The translations under genes and the position numbers were made by a program. This document shows, piece after piece, positions 42,303 through 53,351 of a stretch of 64,000 nt of DNA. Numbering within the stretch: the first letter of the stretch is position 1; each line of letters begins with the position of its first letter. Source of the DNA: Promethearchaeota archaeon (GTDB lineage: Archaea > Asgardarchaeota > Lokiarchaeia > Sigyniarchaeales > SOKP01). The stretch lies in NCBI GenBank assembly GCA_048939995.1, contig JBHLOY010000004.1, forward strand, positions 192,001 through 256,000, given 5' to 3'. The notes under the pieces were generated by a model that saw nothing but the letters and a program-made list of their open reading frames with translations, was not told the origin of the DNA and did no database searches.

Positions 42303-42533
42303 TTAATAAAGCTCTAATTTAAGGTTATCAATTAGAGATGCTATATATTGAGCATTAAATGATTCTTTGTCTTCTAATTCATCATAAGCTCTCATATACT
42401 CACTCAATTGTTTTTGTTTCTCAAAATATTCTAATTCAAGATACCCTATCGAAAATTCAGGTAAAAATTGCTTGCATGAATCATCAATGACTTTTCTTTC
42501 CATTTCATCCAAATTTTTCACGTCAATTTCCAT
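42303..42533 (-). CDS. Small helical protein, partial paralog of 46775..47392
   Basis: Gapless 52-aa alignment with 16 identities to the middle of 46775..47392. Confidence 0.75.
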   Translation of the reverse strand: MEIDVKNLDEMERKVIDDSCKQFLPEFSIGYLELEYFEKQKQLSEYMRAYDELEDKESFNAQYIASLIDNLKLELY

Positions 42534-42610
42534 TAAAACCACAACCTTTTTAGAAAGTTTAAAATTTTGTTTTATCTGAGTAAATAACCATTATCTCTCA
42601 ATTTAAAAAA

Positions 42611-42668
42611 TTTGATAAGAAGATTTTTTATAGGTTTGATAAATTTTTTTATCAAAATTATTTTTAAG
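42611..42668 (-). promoter_or_regulatory. Operator-like element: half-site plus palindrome TTTGATAAA-N4-TTTATCAAA (42635-42656)
   Basis: 43/58 identical to 47477-47534; adjacent to a TATA-like TTTTTAAA on the minus strand. Confidence 0.6.
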
Positions 42669-44993: not shown

Positions 44994-45980
44994 TTACTTA
45001 TTAAGTAATCCCGATGCTATTTCAAAGGCATAATTATAATCAAATATCTTTAATCCCTTTGTTTTTGAAGCTTCTCTTAAAATTTGACTCTCTGTATTCG
45101 CTTTCAGTGCTCCTAGCGCTAAAGCACCAATACAAAATACTCCTGGATAAATCTCATCATTTTTATGTTTTGGTTTAATACCTTCAATACCGTAGGGAGG
45201 TACAAGATTAATATCGATAACAATCTTTTTACCTGGTAATTTTTGCATCCATTCTGAACTTAATATTTCAACTCCCGCTGCTGCGAGAGACCATATTACA
45301 AGTGCATCTTCTGCGATTTCAAACCGTTGTTCTGGTCCTGGAGCAAATACTCCAAAAATCTTTTCTGATTCTCCTCCGGTTTCTTCATTAAGCTCTTTTG
45401 CTAAAGTATTTATGAAATCTTTATTAGATTTCTCCCAAGTCTCAACAATATAGGTTTTACACCCCATCTTTCCCGCTAAAACTGCAGCAATTCTACCAAC
45501 AGGTCCTGCACCAAATATCACCACTTTCTTATCTTTTAAATCTCTAATACCATGTTTCTTATTGGCAATACTAATTGTCATGGCGACGACCGCAGATGCA
45601 GTAGTGTGCGATCCTCTGGGGTCAATAATGATAGGACACTCGAAAGGTGGTACTAATGAATTTTTAACGGCTTTAGCTATTTTTTCGCCTTCTTTTACAT
45701 CTGAACCACCAATAAAGAAAGCTGTAGGGGCACTAGGTTTCCTAGAAAATATTGCATCTTGAACTAATTTAGGAACATATTCTGCTTTCATTTTATTGAG
45801 AGGTATAACAATATCAAAACCAGCATCATAGGCCATATTTATATCAAATGGAGATGCATTATCGTCTGTATCAAAAAAGTAACAAATTTTATCGGAGGTA
45901 TCTTGTTTCTTTATAATAATTGGAGTTAATTCGATTATAGATTTTTTTCCTAAAATACTTTCCACACTTTTCTCAACCAT
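44994..45980 (-). CDS. NAD(P)-dependent methylene-H4MPT dehydrogenase, MtdB-like
   Basis: SPFDINMAYDAGFD, VQDAIFSR, PPF..DPRGSHTTA, GAGPVG, DINLVPPYGIEG. Confidence 0.82.
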   Translation of the reverse strand: MVEKSVESILGKKSIIELTPIIIKKQDTSDKICYFFDTDDNASPFDINMAYDAGFDIVIPLNKMKAEYVPKLVQDAIFSRKPSAPTAFFIGGSDVKEGEKIAKAVKNSLVPPFECPIIIDPRGSHTTASAVVAMTISIANKKHGIRDLKDKKVVIFGAGPVGRIAAVLAGKMGCKTYIVETWEKSNKDFINTLAKELNEETGGESEKIFGVFAPGPEQRFEIAEDALVIWSLAAAGVEILSSEWMQKLPGKKIVIDINLVPPYGIEGIKPKHKNDEIYPGVFCIGALALGALKANTESQILREASKTKGLKIFDYNYAFEIASGLLNK

Positions 45981-46023
45981 TTTTTTCAACTCATTTCGTA
46001 ATTCAATTTTATAATAAAAAATT

Positions 46024-46755
46024 TTATTTTGAAATATCAATTTCTACATCTTTTTCGAAATCCTTTTCAAGTTCCTCAGTTTTAATAGTTCTTTTAATTT
46101 TAACTTGTTCCATTTCTATGCCTAAATCTTCTGATAGTTTTTCAATCCCATTAAAATGTCGAACATCGCATATAAACATCCCTTTCAACTTCTTTCCTTC
46201 TACATTCTTCGCAAGATTAAGAATATTCATCATCATCCATGCTTCTCTTACTTTATATCTTACTTCATCTTCTTGATTATCATAATCCTTCTTTAAATAC
46301 TCCTTCCATAATATTAACTTTTGAAACAGTTCATCATCTTCGGGAACTTTTCCTTGCTTTTGGATTAGTTCTCTAATTCTACATTCAAGATTTTTAATTG
46401 TAGATCTATGTTCATCTAAGGCTGATGAAAGATATAATTCAGCATTTTCAGAAATATCAGCAAGTTTGAAAGGAATCTTCCTTTTTTCAAATAGAGTTTT
46501 TAATGGATCATTTGCTTGATTTGCGTTATTCCAAAAATTCGGCTTTTCTTCCACAGCAAAATCAGGTTTATACTTTTCAATTAACGAATCAATCAATTGG
46601 AGGTATTCTTTTGAAATTAAATGAAGATTCCAAATAATATCTTCTTTAATTTCATCAGGAACTTCAAACCACCAATCAATTGGGAATTCACTCTCAACCA
46701 TTATCAATTTTAAATATTTATCCTTTAATGATTTTAATTCTAACACTTCTGGCAT
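46024..46755 (-). CDS. Uncharacterised protein, possible TraB/GumN/Tiki-like fold
   Basis: KYKPDFAVEE and VREAWM..MFICDVRHFNGI resemble TraB-type motifs; AGGAGG SD; paralog of its neighbour. Confidence 0.6.
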   Translation of the reverse strand: MPEVLELKSLKDKYLKLIMVESEFPIDWWFEVPDEIKEDIIWNLHLISKEYLQLIDSLIEKYKPDFAVEEKPNFWNNANQANDPLKTLFEKRKIPFKLADISENAELYLSSALDEHRSTIKNLECRIRELIQKQGKVPEDDELFQKLILWKEYLKKDYDNQEDEVRYKVREAWMMMNILNLAKNVEGKKLKGMFICDVRHFNGIEKLSEDLGIEMEQVKIKRTIKTEELEKDFEKDVEIDISK

Positions 46756-46774
46756 TTATTATCTCCTCCTTCTT

Positions 46775-47392
46775 TTAAAATATTATATTTTGTATTGTAT
46801 GTTTTTTATTATAAGAAACTACTTTTACACCTAATTCCCTCAAATTGTTTGTAATCTCTGGGCAAATATCTTCACAAATATCTTCTTGAACAAAATGTAC
46901 AAAAGCAATGATGTCTTTTTCGTACTTTGACAATAAGTCTAACATTCTCTTAACAATCCATTGAGGTCTTAGTTTTAAACTTAGAAATATTTCTTTTTCC
47001 TGAATCTCTTCACCTAACATGTCAATCCAATTTTTTAAACTAAGCCCTTTATATGACTCTTTCTCAATCATATTTTCATATTCTTCAAATAATTCAGTTT
47101 GTAACTGTTGGTTTTCAATAATTTCTTGATATAAATATCCCATTGCATAATCTGGAATATCAACTTGGAAATAAGGGATTTTAAGCTCATTTAATGTTAG
47201 AGCAAACGGAGTTTTGCTAAATTCTTTCATATTAACTTGAAAATCTACTGTCACAAAATCTACATTGTTCTTTCTTAAAAATTCTCTTAGTTTTGTGGTA
47301 TCTTTATTTTGAAAATACTTAGCATTTTCTTTCGAGGAAATATAGGCAATAATTTTTTTATTTTTTATAGGCTTTAATTCCAAAACCTCCAT
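46775..47392 (-). CDS. Uncharacterised protein, paralog of 46024..46755
   Basis: Shared xVLELKxxKxK start, IP(Y/F)xxxDI..YL and K(L/V)RxxW motifs; GAGGTG SD. Confidence 0.65.
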   Translation of the reverse strand: MEVLELKPIKNKKIIAYISSKENAKYFQNKDTTKLREFLRKNNVDFVTVDFQVNMKEFSKTPFALTLNELKIPYFQVDIPDYAMGYLYQEIIENQQLQTELFEEYENMIEKESYKGLSLKNWIDMLGEEIQEKEIFLSLKLRPQWIVKRMLDLLSKYEKDIIAFVHFVQEDICEDICPEITNNLRELGVKVVSYNKKHTIQNIIF

Positions 47393-47476
47393 TTTATAAA
47401 ACACCTCTCTCTAAACCTTTATTTAAAAGTTTAATATTACTCTAAGATTATAATCAAATTCTCAGAATAAAAAGAG

Positions 47477-47534
47477 TTTGACAAGAAAATTTTGTGATAA
47501 TTTGATAATTTTTTTAGTCAAGATTTCTTTTAAC
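47477..47534 (-). promoter_or_regulatory. Operator-like element: half-site plus TTGAT-N10-GTCAA (47501-47522)
   Basis: Same layout (half-site 24 bp from palindrome) and similar distance to the start codon as 42611-42668. Confidence 0.6.
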
Positions 47535-47633: not shown

Positions 47634-47685
47634 TTTAAATAGATCGATAACTATCATTATCATGAAGAGAAATAAAATTGTCAAA
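47634..47685 (+). promoter_or_regulatory. Putative promoter of the wHTH-hdrA operon: TATA-like TTTAAATA, degenerate palindrome TCGAT-N10-ATCAT and half-site TTGTCAAA
   Basis: TTTAAATA 47634-47641; palindrome 47643-47664; TTGTCAAA 47678-47685. Confidence 0.4.
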
Positions 47686-47729: not shown

Positions 47730-50276
47730 ATAGGTATTTATAGTATCTTATCTCACCCTTTTCGACAAAAAATCCTACTCTTGTTAGAAAAAGAAGGATT
47801 CATCCCATACACCGATTTAATGGAAAAAATGGGTATCAATCAAACAGGTCAGTTAAATTTCCATTTGAAAAAATTAGGGTCCTTAATAAATAAAGATAAA
47901 AAATCTTATTATTTAAGTGAAGATGGCAAAAAAATTTTAAGAATTATGAATTTGAGCAAGCGTATTTTAGCAGGTGAAGAAATAGAATACTTAGATAAAA
48001 AAGGGAGTGAAATTAGTAGAATAGGAGTGATTTTATGTGGTTGTAATACTGAAATATCCAATATAATAAATATCAATGCATTGGAAAGTCAAATTGAAAA
48101 ATTAGATGGAGTAGTTTCAGTGAAGGTTTTTGATAATTTATGCCAAGAAAAAAATTTAAATAATATAACAAATTGGTCAAAAGAAAATTTTTTAAACAAA
48201 GTTGTTATAGCTGCTTGTTCCCCTAAAACTCATCAACATATTTTTGAGCGAATTTTCAAAGATGTGATTGATAATGCAAATATTGAAATAGCAAATATTA
48301 GGGAACAATGTTGTTGGGTTCATCATTCAAATATTCAACAATTTGATCCTTTATTAGCATTAAAGAAAGCGAGTTTATTAATTGAGGCTGCAGTTGAACG
48401 TGTAAGGCTTCAAAAAGAGGTTAAAATAAAAACTGTAGAAGTGGAAAAAAGCTGTGCAATATTAGGGGGTGGTATCGCAGGTATGACATTAGCCCTTAAT
48501 CTTTCACGTGCAGGGATAAAAGTATACCTAATTGAAAAATCACCTACTTTAGGCGGGAAAGTAGCCAGATGGCATCGGATTTCTAACATGGGGGATTGCT
48601 CTATATGTTTTATTTCCGAATTAATTGGTGAAATCGTAAAAGAAAAAAATATTGAAATTTTGACTAACACTGAAGTAGAAACCGTTTCTGGAGAAGTAGG
48701 AAATTTTAGCTTAGATTTAATCAAGAAACCTCGATTTGTTGATGAGAAAAAGTGTACTGGGTGCAAACAATGCATAAATGTGTGTGGCAAAGAAAAGAAA
48801 AATCAGTATGAATTTGATTTAACTAATCGAAAAATAATATATATCCCCTTCCAAAATGCATATCCATATGCTCCTCTAATTGACGAAGAAGATATTAATA
48901 ATTGTTTAAACTGTAAGATATGTGAACGTGTTTGTATTAATAAAGCAATAGATCTAAGCCAAAAAGTTGAAAAAGTTCGAATTAAAGTCGGAGTTAAAGT
49001 TATAGCTATAGGTGCTGACCTGTACTCCAATCTAGTGAAATATCTATATAATCCTCAAAAAGATATTATCACTTCTGCTGAATTTGAGAGAATTCTATCT
49101 TCGGATGGCATTACTGAGGGAAAATTGCTAAGGTTATCAGATAAAAAACCGATAAATTCCATTTCAATCATTCAAGAAGTTGGTCCATCTAAATATCTTG
49201 CAGAATATTCTGAAAACTTAGCGCAAAAATATATTGAGGATATTAAAATAAGAAGTCCTGACTGTGAAGTAAATGTTTTTTACGATTTAAGTAAATTAAA
49301 AAATAAAGATGAGATATTTCTAAAATCAACCAATCCAAGATTTCTTTACGCTAATAACATATCTATTGAGTCTAATGGTAAAATTAACTATGTTATAGCC
49401 GATAATATTGAATTTCCAAGCGATCTGATAGTTTTAAATCTCAAATGTATACCTAATAAAGATCTAAAAATATTACGTAGATTCATGGATTTTACATTGA
49501 ATGATTACGGTTTTATGAGTGAAGAAACCCTAGCGTCAGGTATTTATGGAGTTGGAACAATATTTGGGGCTTTAAATTACCAAACTACCCTTTCTACAGT
49601 GAATACTGTTGCGTTAAAAATTATTGCACTACTCTCAAATGATTATTTATTAGCTGAATTTACTGGAATTGAAATTAATGAAGATAAATGTGGATTATGT
49701 GGATTATGTGAGAAAGCATGTCCTTATAATGCAATAACTATAGAATCGAATAAGATTAATATTGATAAATTTAAATGTAAAGGATGTGGTACATGCGCTG
49801 GAGTGTGTTCTACAAACGCCATTGAAATGAACATCGATACTTCAGAAAAGATTTTAAGAACAATTGAGATTTATTCAAAATTTGCTAAAAATCCTAAAAT
49901 TATCGCTTTTTGTTGTTCTTCTTGTGGTTATGCCGCAGCTGATGATGCTGGTCTAAAAAAGGAGTTATATCAACCAAATATTTTTGTGATCCGCATTCCC
50001 TGTACTGGAAGATTAGATACTGAATTTATTTTTAAATCTTTTGAGGTCGGATTTGATGGAGTAATGGTAATAGGATGCAGGAAAGATGCTTGCAGATATA
50101 TTGATGGTATTGAAAAAGCACAAAAAAAGATAACTCTCCTAAAAAGGATATTAAATCCCAAATATAGCAACCGAATTATATTTAAAAATTTAAATGCTGT
50201 AGAGGGCCATAAGTTTGCTGAGATCGCAAATAAATTTTATAATATTTTAAAGGAGGGGGCTACTAATCAAACTTAA
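47730..50276 (+). CDS. ArsR-like winged-HTH - HdrA-like flavoprotein/Fe-S - MvhD fusion
   Basis: IYSILSHPFRQKIL..GQLNFHLKKL (wHTH); GVILCGC, ACSP, NIREQCCWVH, GGGIAG, ferredoxin motifs (HdrA); IAFCCSSCGYAAAD, PCTGR, DGVMVIGC..CRY (MvhD); proposed ATA start after GAGGAG. Confidence 0.88.
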   Translation: MGIYSILSHPFRQKILLLLEKEGFIPYTDLMEKMGINQTGQLNFHLKKLGSLINKDKKSYYLSEDGKKILRIMNLSKRILAGEEIEYLDKKGSEISRIGVILCGCNTEISNIININALESQIEKLDGVVSVKVFDNLCQEKNLNNITNWSKENFLNKVVIAACSPKTHQHIFERIFKDVIDNANIEIANIREQCCWVHHSNIQQFDPLLALKKASLLIEAAVERVRLQKEVKIKTVEVEKSCAILGGGIAGMTLALNLSRAGIKVYLIEKSPTLGGKVARWHRISNMGDCSICFISELIGEIVKEKNIEILTNTEVETVSGEVGNFSLDLIKKPRFVDEKKCTGCKQCINVCGKEKKNQYEFDLTNRKIIYIPFQNAYPYAPLIDEEDINNCLNCKICERVCINKAIDLSQKVEKVRIKVGVKVIAIGADLYSNLVKYLYNPQKDIITSAEFERILSSDGITEGKLLRLSDKKPINSISIIQEVGPSKYLAEYSENLAQKYIEDIKIRSPDCEVNVFYDLSKLKNKDEIFLKSTNPRFLYANNISIESNGKINYVIADNIEFPSDLIVLNLKCIPNKDLKILRRFMDFTLNDYGFMSEETLASGIYGVGTIFGALNYQTTLSTVNTVALKIIALLSNDYLLAEFTGIEINEDKCGLCGLCEKACPYNAITIESNKINIDKFKCKGCGTCAGVCSTNAIEMNIDTSEKILRTIEIYSKFAKNPKIIAFCCSSCGYAAADDAGLKKELYQPNIFVIRIPCTGRLDTEFIFKSFEVGFDGVMVIGCRKDACRYIDGIEKAQKKITLLKRILNPKYSNRIIFKNLNAVEGHKFAEIANKFYNILKEGATNQT

Positions 50277-51012
50277 ATTTATTGTAGCTTCATTAACTTC
50301 ATGCAGTGGATGTATTTCAACATTGATGGCTTTAGATATGTTTTCTCAATTTTTAGAAAGGACCGAAATTTCATTTTTCCCATTTATTTCAGACCAAATT
50401 GAAGTTAATGATTCAGATATCGCATTAATAGAGGGTTGTGTTTCAGAAATCAGTCAAATAGCAACTTTGAAGAATATTAGGAAACATGCAAAAAAAGTTT
50501 ATGCTTTAGGTACCTGTGCTACTTTTGGGGGAATTTTGGGATTATCTAAAAGAAAAAATTCTGATCAAATCTCAAAATTTATAGATATTGATGGATTTAT
50601 ACCTGGTTGCCCCCCTCCAACAAATCTGCTAGGAAATTCCTTAATGAGACTAATTGAAAATAAGAGCATTATTTTATCAGAAAAAAATATGTGTATTTCT
50701 TGTCCTCTCAAAGATGAAATGCATTTAAATTCTCAAATCTCAAAACTTAGTCCTTCTAATTCTGAAATTATGTCAGATAAACGAGAATGCTTTTTAAATA
50801 ATGGAATTTTATGTTTAGGACCGATTACTCGAGAAGGGTGTAATAATAAATGTATAGAACTGGGAATACCATGTGAGGGATGCTTAGGTCCTCCTAAAAA
50901 ACAGTTTACTTCAAACCTAATTAATTTCTTAAGTCTGGTTCAACTATCCAATAAATTAAAGAGATATTCGGGTATTTTTTACAGATTTTCAAAACCAACA
51001 TTAAGAGGGTGA
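50263..51012 (+). CDS. mvhG: Group 3 [NiFe]-hydrogenase small subunit (MvhG-like)
   Basis: LTSCSGC (upstream of the first TTG), EGC, GTCATFGG, PGCPP, CLGPITREGC..C..PCEGC; start CTA 50263 or ATC 50266 after AGGAGG. Confidence 0.85.
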   Translation, partial: LIKLKFIVASLTSCSGCISTLMALDMFSQFLERTEISFFPFISDQIEVNDSDIALIEGCVSEISQIATLKNIRKHAKKVYALGTCATFGGILGLSKRKNSDQISKFIDIDGFIPGCPPPTNLLGNSLMRLIENKSIILSEKNMCISCPLKDEMHLNSQISKLSPSNSEIMSDKRECFLNNGILCLGPITREGCNNKCIELGIPCEGCLGPPKKQFTSNLINFLSLVQLSNKLKRYSGIFYRFSKPTLRG

Positions 51013-51018
51013 GGAAGA

Positions 51019-52317
51019 GTACAGAAGGTAATAAATGTATGTTCAAGAGTTGAAGGCCATGGGAAAGTAAATTATTTCATACAAAATGAGCATATTGACC
51101 ATGTTGAATTCGAAATTTCTGCATTTAGGGGATTCGAAAACATTTTAATAGGTAAGAAATTAAGTGATATCCCTAAGATTGTTTCACGAATTTGCGGTCT
51201 ATGTCATGCTTCCCAAACAATTGCTAGTTGTAAAGCAATTGAAAAAATTTATGAAATCCAACCTAGTTCTCAAGCTACTTTACTTCGAAGATTATTAATG
51301 ACGGGAGAATTAATTAAATCTCATATTATGCATTTTTTCTTTCAAACCTTACCAGATCTTTTAGAAATTTTTCAAGTGTTTAAAAATGGAATTGATTCAT
51401 ACAATTTAATTAGATTTGATTCTCAATTGAGTACTTGCGTTTTTGATTTAATTAAAGCAGGAACTGAGTTAAATAATCTTTTTGGAGGAAGGATAATTCA
51501 TTTGATTACCCCTGTTCCCGGAGGAATGATCTACTACCCTTCAAAAAAGAAAATTCTACTTGCCCAAAAATATTTGCAGAAATCTGCTTCTAATATACAA
51601 TATGTTTTAGATCGCTTCGTTGAATTATTCTCTACTAAGAATCCTCCTTATGAATTTAATATATCGAATCTATCATATCTAGGAATGACTAATCAAGGAA
51701 AATATGATAGATATAATGGGACTCTAAGCATTATTCCTTTCAATCAGAATAGAATAAATTTTGAAATCAATGATTACGAAAACTATTTTGATAAAGACTC
51801 TTGTTTGTTTGGAATAAAATTTTTATCTGATATAAAGAATATCTTAACTGGACCTATCGCAAGATTCTTTTTAGTAAAAAATAATAATGAAATTGAAAAA
51901 AATACTATAATAAATAACTTTGATAATAATTGGAAAGAAAATCTATTACTTATGAACATTTTGCAACTATTAGAGATCTCTAATGAAATAAAGGGTAGTC
52001 TAGAGATATTAAATAAACATAGTCTAGAAATTAAAGAACCACTTCCCTCTCTTAATTCCACTTTAAATCAAGAGGGTATTGGAATGGTTGAAGCTCCACG
52101 TGGGACCCTCATACACCACTACCATTTGAATAAATCTAAGGTTATTGATAATGTTAAACTCTTTATAGCCACTGAAATTAATTTTCCCCTTTTGAATGAA
52201 AAAATTAAAAATTACGCTCAAGAGTTATACAAAAAAGAAGATTTAGAATCTCTCAATAGAAAAGTTCAAATTATGATAAGAGCTTTTGATCCATGTATCT
52301 CTTGTGCCACACATTAA
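51019..52317 (+). CDS. mvhA: Group 3 [NiFe]-hydrogenase large subunit (MvhA-like), sensor-like features
   Basis: In frame upstream of the track start: RVEGHG, RGFE, RICGLCHASQ; also EAPRG and DPCISCATH-stop; proposed GTA start after GGTGA. Confidence 0.88.
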   Translation, partial: VQKVINVCSRVEGHGKVNYFIQNEHIDHVEFEISAFRGFENILIGKKLSDIPKIVSRICGLCHASQTIASCKAIEKIYEIQPSSQATLLRRLLMTGELIKSHIMHFFFQTLPDLLEIFQVFKNGIDSYNLIRFDSQLSTCVFDLIKAGTELNNLFGGRIIHLITPVPGGMIYYPSKKKILLAQKYLQKSASNIQYVLDRFVELFSTKNPPYEFNISNLSYLGMTNQGKYDRYNGTLSIIPFNQNRINFEINDYENYFDKDSCLFGIKFLSDIKNILTGPIARFFLVKNNNEIEKNTIINNFDNNWKENLLLMNILQLLEISNEIKGSLEILNKHSLEIKEPLPSLNSTLNQEGIGMVEAPRGTLIHHYHLNKSKVIDNVKLFIATEINFPLLNEKIKNYAQELYKKEDLESLNRKVQIMIRAFDPCISCATH

Positions 52318-52337
52318 AAAGATTTAGTGTTGATCTA

Positions 52338-53351
52338 ATGAATAATATCGAAACGATTCGCAAGGATAATGTAGAACCTGTGCAACTATGTGAAATTTTC
52401 TTACTCTACTTTGATGAGGAATTTGGCCCAATGCCACTTCTTATCACTCCGGATGAATCTTTAAAAAATAATCTCGATGTTATGCGGTTAATTAGAATCC
52501 ATTCCATTTGGTTTCTTGATATAAGCGATCAGACCTCTCCTGATCGTATGGATTTAGAATATAAGGAAAAAATCTATTTTGCAAAGAAATTTTTAGTACC
52601 TTCACAGAGAGAAAAACGACGGTCAGGTTCTGAAGGAGATACTTATGAAACACTCGTTTTAATTTTAGCTTTACCAGTTGATATGGATATCTTTGGAGGA
52701 GCTCTTCTCAAAAGAATGGCTGAACGATTAACAAAGCATTTTGCATTAAAATTCACTCGCTTGATAGATTCTGAAGTGGCAAAAATGAATGCCATAAAAA
52801 CGCCTTCAACCTTAACTTTAATTCAGATCGGCGATACTATTAAAAAACGAATAAGCGTTTTAATCAAAAATACATGTGTCCAATATTTTGATGCTGTAAT
52901 CAAAAAAACGGATTCTACAACTTTCAAACTTCAAAAAGCTATATCATATTTATCGTTAAAAGGAGTCCCAATTAACTATATTGTAAGTGAAGAGGGAAAT
53001 TTAGGCTTTTCAAATGTAAAACTGTTTGAATCAAAAGTTTTAGCAAATGACACATATGGAATTCGAAATCAATTTAAGATTTTAAGCACTGATATAGATC
53101 CAGATACTCAGGAAGTTGAAATCTTAATTAAAAATCAAACAAGTAAAGAATTTAATAACATATATGCAAAAGTTATTTCTATTCAAGAATTCTTCGAAAA
53201 AGAGGTTTTACGTGAAAATATTGAAAAATGGCTTCCTGAAGAGGAATTAATTATTATTTTACCAAATATAATCTCAAATTTTGAATACTATTTTTCTATT
53301 CAAGATGTTAGTTCCAATCAGACTCTGTTTAAACAAAAACTAAGATTGTAA
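52338..53351 (+). CDS. Hypothetical protein with longin/uDENN-like N-terminus and beta-rich C-terminus
   Basis: IFLLYFDEEFGPMPLLITP resembles the first strands of NPRL2/DENN longin domains. Confidence 0.5.
   Translation: MNNIETIRKDNVEPVQLCEIFLLYFDEEFGPMPLLITPDESLKNNLDVMRLIRIHSIWFLDISDQTSPDRMDLEYKEKIYFAKKFLVPSQREKRRSGSEGDTYETLVLILALPVDMDIFGGALLKRMAERLTKHFALKFTRLIDSEVAKMNAIKTPSTLTLIQIGDTIKKRISVLIKNTCVQYFDAVIKKTDSTTFKLQKAISYLSLKGVPINYIVSEEGNLGFSNVKLFESKVLANDTYGIRNQFKILSTDIDPDTQEVEILIKNQTSKEFNNIYAKVISIQEFFEKEVLRENIEKWLPEEELIIILPNIISNFEYYFSIQDVSSNQTLFKQKLRL

Follow-up and report, generated by a model that had tools for sequence, protein, structure and literature searches.

Is a [NiFe]-hydrogenase large subunit that carries Gln in place of the L1 His, and that lacks a C-terminal extension, part of a hydrogen sensor? 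The question is raised by a gene at 51019–52317 (+) of the 64,000-nucleotide stretch of Lokiarchaeia DNA analyzed here (the window), which encodes 432 residues on a group 3 scaffold. The earlier note had read its L1 motif as RICGLCHASQ and its chain end as DPCISCATH, and had likened both to the regulatory group 2b enzymes; translation bears out each reading. The L1 motif (51187–51216, +) contains Cys59, Cys62 and Gln66, the last aligning with HoxC Gln67, while in the L2 motif (52288–52317, +) Cys426, Cys429 and His432 are followed at once by TAA, so that the L2 His is the last residue. The group 2b comparison also holds, in that HoxC of Cupriavidus necator pHG1 reads RVCGICSVSQ and ends DPCMVCTVH-stop. 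Intact, too, as had been claimed, are the four Ni-ligating Cys, the Glu of RVEGHG (Glu12, at 51046) and the Arg of EAPRG (Arg361). Across 43 aligned members the four Cys, Glu12, Glu40, Arg361, Asp113, Asp424, Thr385 and His432 are invariant; the Ni-Fe ligands, the proton-transfer Glu and the canopy Arg and Asp are all conserved.

A few further features of this gene deserve mention. Glu386 (52174–52176), which adjoins the CN-binding Thr385, is invariant in a column that holds Ala, Asn, Thr or Val in other group 3 enzymes, and Gln109 stands where the gas channel usually has Leu. Of 121 homologues, 20 carry Gln, Arg, Cys, Ser, Asn, Lys or Tyr in place of the RxEGH His (within the subset P0008–P0016 and P0045–P0073). 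The large subunit is followed by a gene of ~345 aa and no known family (52293–53351), as in ~30 of 80 loci.

By sequence, by fold and by its four Cys ligands, the subunit belongs to group 3. Its best matches are MvhA of 5ODC (E 1e-48) and HoxH of 5XF9, the predicted model agrees with these group 3 folds at TM 0.86–0.87, and the NCBIfam models ShyA and VhuA match it below their cut-offs. In a tree with two group 2b and two group 1 references, drawn without groups 2a, 2c–2e and 3a, it falls inside group 3 (support 100/100), where its lineage makes up a separate clade (100/99), distinct from the 3b-like and 3c/3d-like clades and hence not with MvhA/VhuA. A tree constrained to unite the Gln clade with the two HoxC sequences is rejected (delta lnL 113, p-AU 7e-49). 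Clustering within group 2b, the outcome against which the earlier note had set its own reading, is thereby ruled out, and from the group 3 placement together with the rejected union it follows that the Gln is convergent.

Nor are the two traits peculiar to one genome. Gln is present in 120 of 121 homologues (51–100% identity; Promethearchaeota wherever a name is given), the chain ends at the L2 His in all 121, and the two occur together in 79/79 complete loci on GTDB contigs; being common to the whole lineage, they reflect neither chance nor local truncation. The earlier note had also raised the prospect that ordinary Asgard group 3 enzymes might share them. Among 76 such subunits from 19 family-level groups, none has Gln or ends at the His: all carry the L1 His, 47 with a tail and 29 either split in the VhuA manner or cut off. 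The 110 more distant group 3 representatives include none with Gln and 18 whose chain ends at the His, and group 4c/4e hydrogenases are catalytic, yet without a tail (PMC7294309). Given such tail-less His enzymes in group 3 and in 4c/4e, tail loss is, on these alignments, the weak trait and Gln the rare one. The L1 His is stated to be conserved in all [NiFe] hydrogenases but the regulatory ones, and the same source holds that the L1 Gln “seems not to be involved in H2 sensing” (PMC5665086). Tail-less His-type enzymes resembling group 3b (L177:6001–7752; P0235, P0240, P0264) occur without adjoining diaphorase genes, and some tail-less 3b-like enzymes are small–large subunit fusions of ~585 aa. 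Beside the tail-less His enzymes on the short contigs L171–L173 and L177, no wHTH partner was seen.

Such a partner is, by contrast, a fixed companion of the Gln-type enzyme. The gene order is wHTH-HdrA-MvhD fusion, small subunit, large subunit wherever the flank suffices to show it (69 of 69 loci; contig ends interrupt the other 11), and no such fusion was seen without hydrogenase genes among the loci examined. MvhG, MvhD and HdrA are thus all linked to the large subunit, as in group 3c. The small subunit (50266–51012, +; ~248 aa) resembles MvhG (E 2e-33) and hardly aligns with HoxB at all; it conserves the ligands of three Fe-S clusters, has no HoxB-type C-terminal tail, and probably starts at ATC. 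In-frame ATG, GTG and TTG starts are absent from all three genes (window positions 47730, 50266 and 51019). The large-subunit frame opens TGA GGA AGA GTA CAG, in which the GTA at 51019 occupies the column of the relatives' Met, the other candidate start being the ATA at 51031. Near-cognate starts (ATA, ATC, ATT, CTG, GTA, ACG) recur in several relatives, whereas VhuA and VhuG always have ATG; across the same 11 genomes, ATG opens 5/11 large-subunit genes versus 11/11 for VhuA. A GTG at 51009 lies one base out of frame, and in the 80%-identical relative L002 the same GTG starts the gene (51009–51021), either through a real change or through an assembly error.

The fusion itself (47730–50276, +; ~848 aa, probable ATA start) places an ArsR-like winged-helix domain (DUF7347; 47730–47990, +) ahead of HdrA and MvhD. 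The recognition-helix motif TGQLNFHL is invariant in 38 wHTH sequences, although the PDB sequence search returned only weak LrpA/ArsR matches for the domain. It is modeled as a homodimer, with a score of 0.47 against 0.01 for the best control, pLDDT of at least 88 and 92% contact agreement; the mark used is reached by 20 of 30 true pairs and 1 of 23 monomers, and the score may reflect likeness to solved ArsR dimers. Conserved recognition helix, modeled dimer and palindromic predicted operator (below) are together those of an ArsR-like regulator. In the HdrA-MvhD portion the FAD motif, the Cys pair DCSIC (48594), the Glu356 equivalent (49080), the Lys409 equivalent, both ferredoxin domains and the MvhD 2Fe-2S ligands are kept. 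Downstream of the Cys pair and the Glu, and following the flavin domain, the segment at 49173–49229 (+) retains the Lys409 equivalent and has none of its four cluster Cys, with 0–2 Cys in 69/69 relatives; we take it, by 5ODC numbering (Wagner 2017), to be the flavin-adjacent HA4 site. HA4 passes the high-potential electron to HdrB (PMC13580544), while the Glu356/Lys409 equivalents mark bifurcating flavins (PMC12054007). Identity across genomes declines from the wHTH (78%) through the whole fusion (71%) and the small subunit (62%) to the large subunit (55%).

With the partner in hand, the order of events can be read along the lineage, which is carried by 65 of 89 genomes of the source genome's family and extends to two other Asgard families. 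Deepest among the members whose wHTH partner is confirmed are L176, L153/L154 and L087; they combine His with all four HA4 Cys. L085 and L150–152 branch next, with His, a tail of 7–8 aa and a single HA4 Cys. P0123 pairs His with a missing tail, L084 and L086 pair Gln with tails of 5–7 aa, and in the large crown group Gln goes with loss of the tail, reversion being rare. Tails of the basal His-type wHTH-coupled members measure 3–8 aa. As read from these sequences, the wHTH fusion came first, with Gln and tail loss following later and separately. The terminal L2 His, which normally binds Mg, is gone in the basal L153, L154, L087, L169 and L170, whose chains end in Val, Leu, Ala or Gln.

This sequence of changes divides what had been proposed. 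The expected co-occurrence with the wHTH fusion is found in one direction, in that every Gln-type enzyme examined has a wHTH partner; in the other it fails, basal wHTH-coupled members having His or a tail. Similarly, of the idea that a sensor evolved convergently on the group 3 scaffold, the scaffold and the independent Gln stand, but the two traits as signatures of sensing do not, in light of the basal members with His and tail, the tail-less His enzymes and the HoxC literature (PMC5665086). Gln and the missing tail are convergent and, among Asgard enzymes, specific, yet they arose late and cannot by themselves identify a sensor. A sensor reading must rest instead on the partner protein and its putative operator.

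That operator is the palindrome TGAYAA-N6-TTRTCA, recovered by de novo search of 40 dereplicated promoters with a log-likelihood of 147, compared to 20–36 in shuffles, and present in 5/9 held-out deep loci (p<0.004). The predicted site lies upstream of the fusion (43/68), of a 209-aa gene (34/39, a count that is partly circular, as the PWM was trained on promoters shared with this gene), of an FrhB-like gene (20/22) and of a split HdrA gene (20/25); almost none of the other neighboring genes has it. In the window, two operator-like palindromes (47645–47662, 47666–47683) sit directly downstream of a TATA-like box (47634–47641), a position that suggests repression. A further one (47503–47520, score 15.6) precedes a divergent operon of probably regulated genes (44994–47404, −), whose products are an MtdB-type methylene-H4MPT dehydrogenase and two proteins without an assigned family (209 aa and 243 aa). 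The Atlas search yielded no name for the 209-aa protein; the 243-aa and Mtd genes (44994–46755) are fused, at ~560 aa, in several relatives (L056, L057, L060, L084, L085). The genome's best non-coding match (42637–42654, score 17.6) is upstream of a 79-aa gene (42303–42542, −), and no convincing distant regulon emerged among the 17 non-coding matches with scores of at least 12 in a genome-wide PWM scan. The PWM was used in place of simpler counts: GATAA-N6-TTATC with one mismatch allowed gave 13 matches in the window against a mean of 8.4, too few to stand out clearly from chance, and exact spaced-palindrome counts were swamped by A/T runs. In L005, L013, L024, L028 and similar loci, an FrhB-like gene upstream of the fusion and a divergent HdrA both have the operator, and this HdrA is split into 183 + ~477 codons, probably joined by Sec readthrough.

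The remainder of the genome bears on function as well. Canonical VhuA is also present in 57 of 65 carrier genomes, with none detectable in the other 8 (incomplete assemblies possible); the source genome additionally encodes VhuG/A/U, a maturation protease and Hyp proteins. Across the same 11 genomes pN is 0.28 for the large subunit versus 0.10 for VhuA at equal pS (0.65 versus 0.68), by which measure the former drifts ~3-fold faster, still under purifying selection; against the nearest relative pN is 0.10 and pS 0.48, with reading frames intact. HypD is not detectable in 6 carrier genomes. Five genomes (G045, G064, G153, G161, G179) have the sensor-like subunit and neither detectable VhuA nor HypD; since hypD and vhuA are close together on a single contig in many genomes, the joint absence fits assembly gaps, which are the probable cause. 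At G000 C17:418964–421800, canonical VhuG/VhuA are followed by a short VhuU-like peptide with an in-frame TGA (probable Sec), an unusual D-C-U-x-x-C motif and a tail, and an Lrp-type regulator with a Cys-rich end lies just upstream. A search of the genome for HoxA/HoxJ-like partners gave only generic kinase matches elsewhere; a kinase gene near some loci lacks the operator, and the conserved three-gene unit contains none.

Taken together, we lean toward regarding the large subunit as the catalytic-site subunit of a putative H2-responsive one-component regulator built from an MvhAGD-HdrA complex. Because it is always encoded with a flavoprotein bearing its own DNA-binding domain, it probably reports H2 directly to gene expression. 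The case is made by that partner, by the lost HdrBC branch, by the separate catalytic hydrogenase, and by the faster drift and weak start codons. Hyp proteins would load the NiFe site without proteolysis, and H2 would be split there slowly, with electrons passing from the small-subunit clusters through MvhD to the HdrA flavin and ferredoxin clusters. Exit to HdrBC being cut (no HA4), the fusion would be held reduced while H2 is present. In solved complexes the HdrA N-terminal domain is part of a mobile arm (PMC12350162), and as the wHTH is fused to this arm, redox state could alter operator binding: reduction would shift the arm and its wHTH dimer, changing the grip on the predicted operator. 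Targets would be the unit's own operon and Mtd here, and FrhB-like and HdrA genes in other genomes. Gln and tail loss would then have come late and by convergence within one sub-lineage; they would accord with low turnover and maturation without a protease, and would not be the cause of sensing. A fuller claim we put at about even: that this is an H2 sensor, the first from an archaeon, and arose when a group 3 [NiFe] hydrogenase was remodeled step by step (wHTH fusion, HA4 loss, His to Gln, tail loss), such that H2 directly switches DNA binding and the active site has converged on the 2b sensors. Against sensing count the apparent dispensability of the Gln in HoxC (PMC5665086), the basal members with His and tail, some of them with all four HA4 Cys, the missing HoxC gas-channel residues, the retained bifurcation-type Glu356/Lys409 and the 8/65 carriers with no detectable VhuA.

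Several of these observations would suit a working metabolic hydrogenase, non-bifurcating and passing electrons from H2 to ferredoxin or F420, whose flavoprotein represses its own genes in the manner of a trigger enzyme and whose Gln and tail loss are quirks of the lineage. Retention of all catalytic residues, the three small-subunit clusters, the ferredoxin domains and the Glu/Lys at the flavin speaks for such an enzyme, as do the FrhB-like gene co-oriented upstream in 22 loci, the existence of tail-less catalytic enzymes in groups 4c/4e (PMC7294309), and the closest NCBIfam model, HdrA2, given that type Ia HdrA may react with F420 (PMC12054007). Its drift relative to VhuA, its weak start codons and the RxEGH His replaced in 20/121 homologues are nonetheless hard to square with a metabolic role; most carriers already have a catalytic hydrogenase, and FrhB is missing from most loci, this one included. 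We consider this account possible but rather unlikely.

Less likely again, and in our view improbable, is that the fusion responds to the general redox state (ferredoxin, F420H2) or to nickel/maturation status, with the hydrogenase an accessory input under relaxed selection. The fall in constraint from wHTH to large subunit points that way, as do the loss of the terminal His in some basal members, the six carriers without detectable HypD, and the replacement of Mvh by FrhB-type donors in methanogens under nickel limitation (PMC12350162). The NiFe-site residues, however, are invariant in the 43 aligned members, large-subunit pN is far below pS, the fusion is never seen without hydrogenase genes, and the missing HypD, where vhuA is missing with it, fits assembly gaps. 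Horizontal acquisition of a group 2b sensor would explain the shared Gln and missing tail, and decay into a pseudo-operon in the source genome the want of canonical starts, but both are scarcely credible given the group 3 placement, the rejected union with HoxC, the MvhG-like small subunit, the intact frames with pN well under pS, and near-cognate starts recurring in other genomes.

Should the complex sense H2, it would show how syntrophic Asgard archaea could monitor the gas tying them to their partners, a capacity central to hydrogen-based models of eukaryote origin. The Gln here represents a second, independent origin, in a lineage wired to a DNA-binding domain, and the natural series of His with tail, Gln with tail, and Gln without tail offers a way to test its role. 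Counts of “group 3b/3c” enzymes in Lokiarchaeia genomes may also include a regulator rather than a metabolic enzyme. We found no description of the system in the literature on Asgard hydrogenases, HdrA-HTH fusions and archaeal H2 sensors, of which our coverage is incomplete.

Among known systems, the nearest in apparent function is the group 2b HoxBC-HoxJ-HoxA of C. necator (HupUV type), with which the Asgard unit shares Gln for the L1 His, the lack of a cleavable tail, a separate catalytic hydrogenase alongside and a likely transcriptional output; a specific activity of 3.8 U/mg is given for RH (PMC8159394). HoxC nevertheless lies on another branch (26% identical across the first 110 aa), and its gas-channel residues Ile62 and Phe110 are Leu61 and Gln109 in the Asgard subunit, which thus lacks the residues of the narrow 2b channel. 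The unit of this archaeal anaerobe differs from the C. necator system also in its MvhG-type small subunit, in lacking a linked kinase and response regulator, and in placing its output in a wHTH fused to HdrA-MvhD. For construction, the model is group 3c: MvhAGD-HdrABC of methanogens (PDB 5ODC, 9SW2) and the genome's own VhuGAU are the best matches for all three proteins, which have in common with it the fold (TM-score 0.86), MvhD, FAD, the Cys pair, the Glu356/Lys409 equivalents and the ferredoxin domains. Group 3c enzymes, however, have the L1 His and a cleaved tail or separate VhuU, whereas here there are Gln and no tail, the HA4 ligands are lost, the unit has no hdrBC, a wHTH is added at the N-terminus, and the large subunit forms its own lineage. 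Redox enzymes and regulatory outputs are also united, in one protein or complex, in trigger enzymes with built-in DNA-binding domains and in sensory [FeFe] group C hydrogenases with fused output domains, although folds and cofactors are unrelated; none in either class is known to use a [NiFe] site or HdrA. Judged by its sequences, then, the Asgard complex would act like a group 2b sensor without being one, and is built of group 3c parts yet stands outside group 3c.
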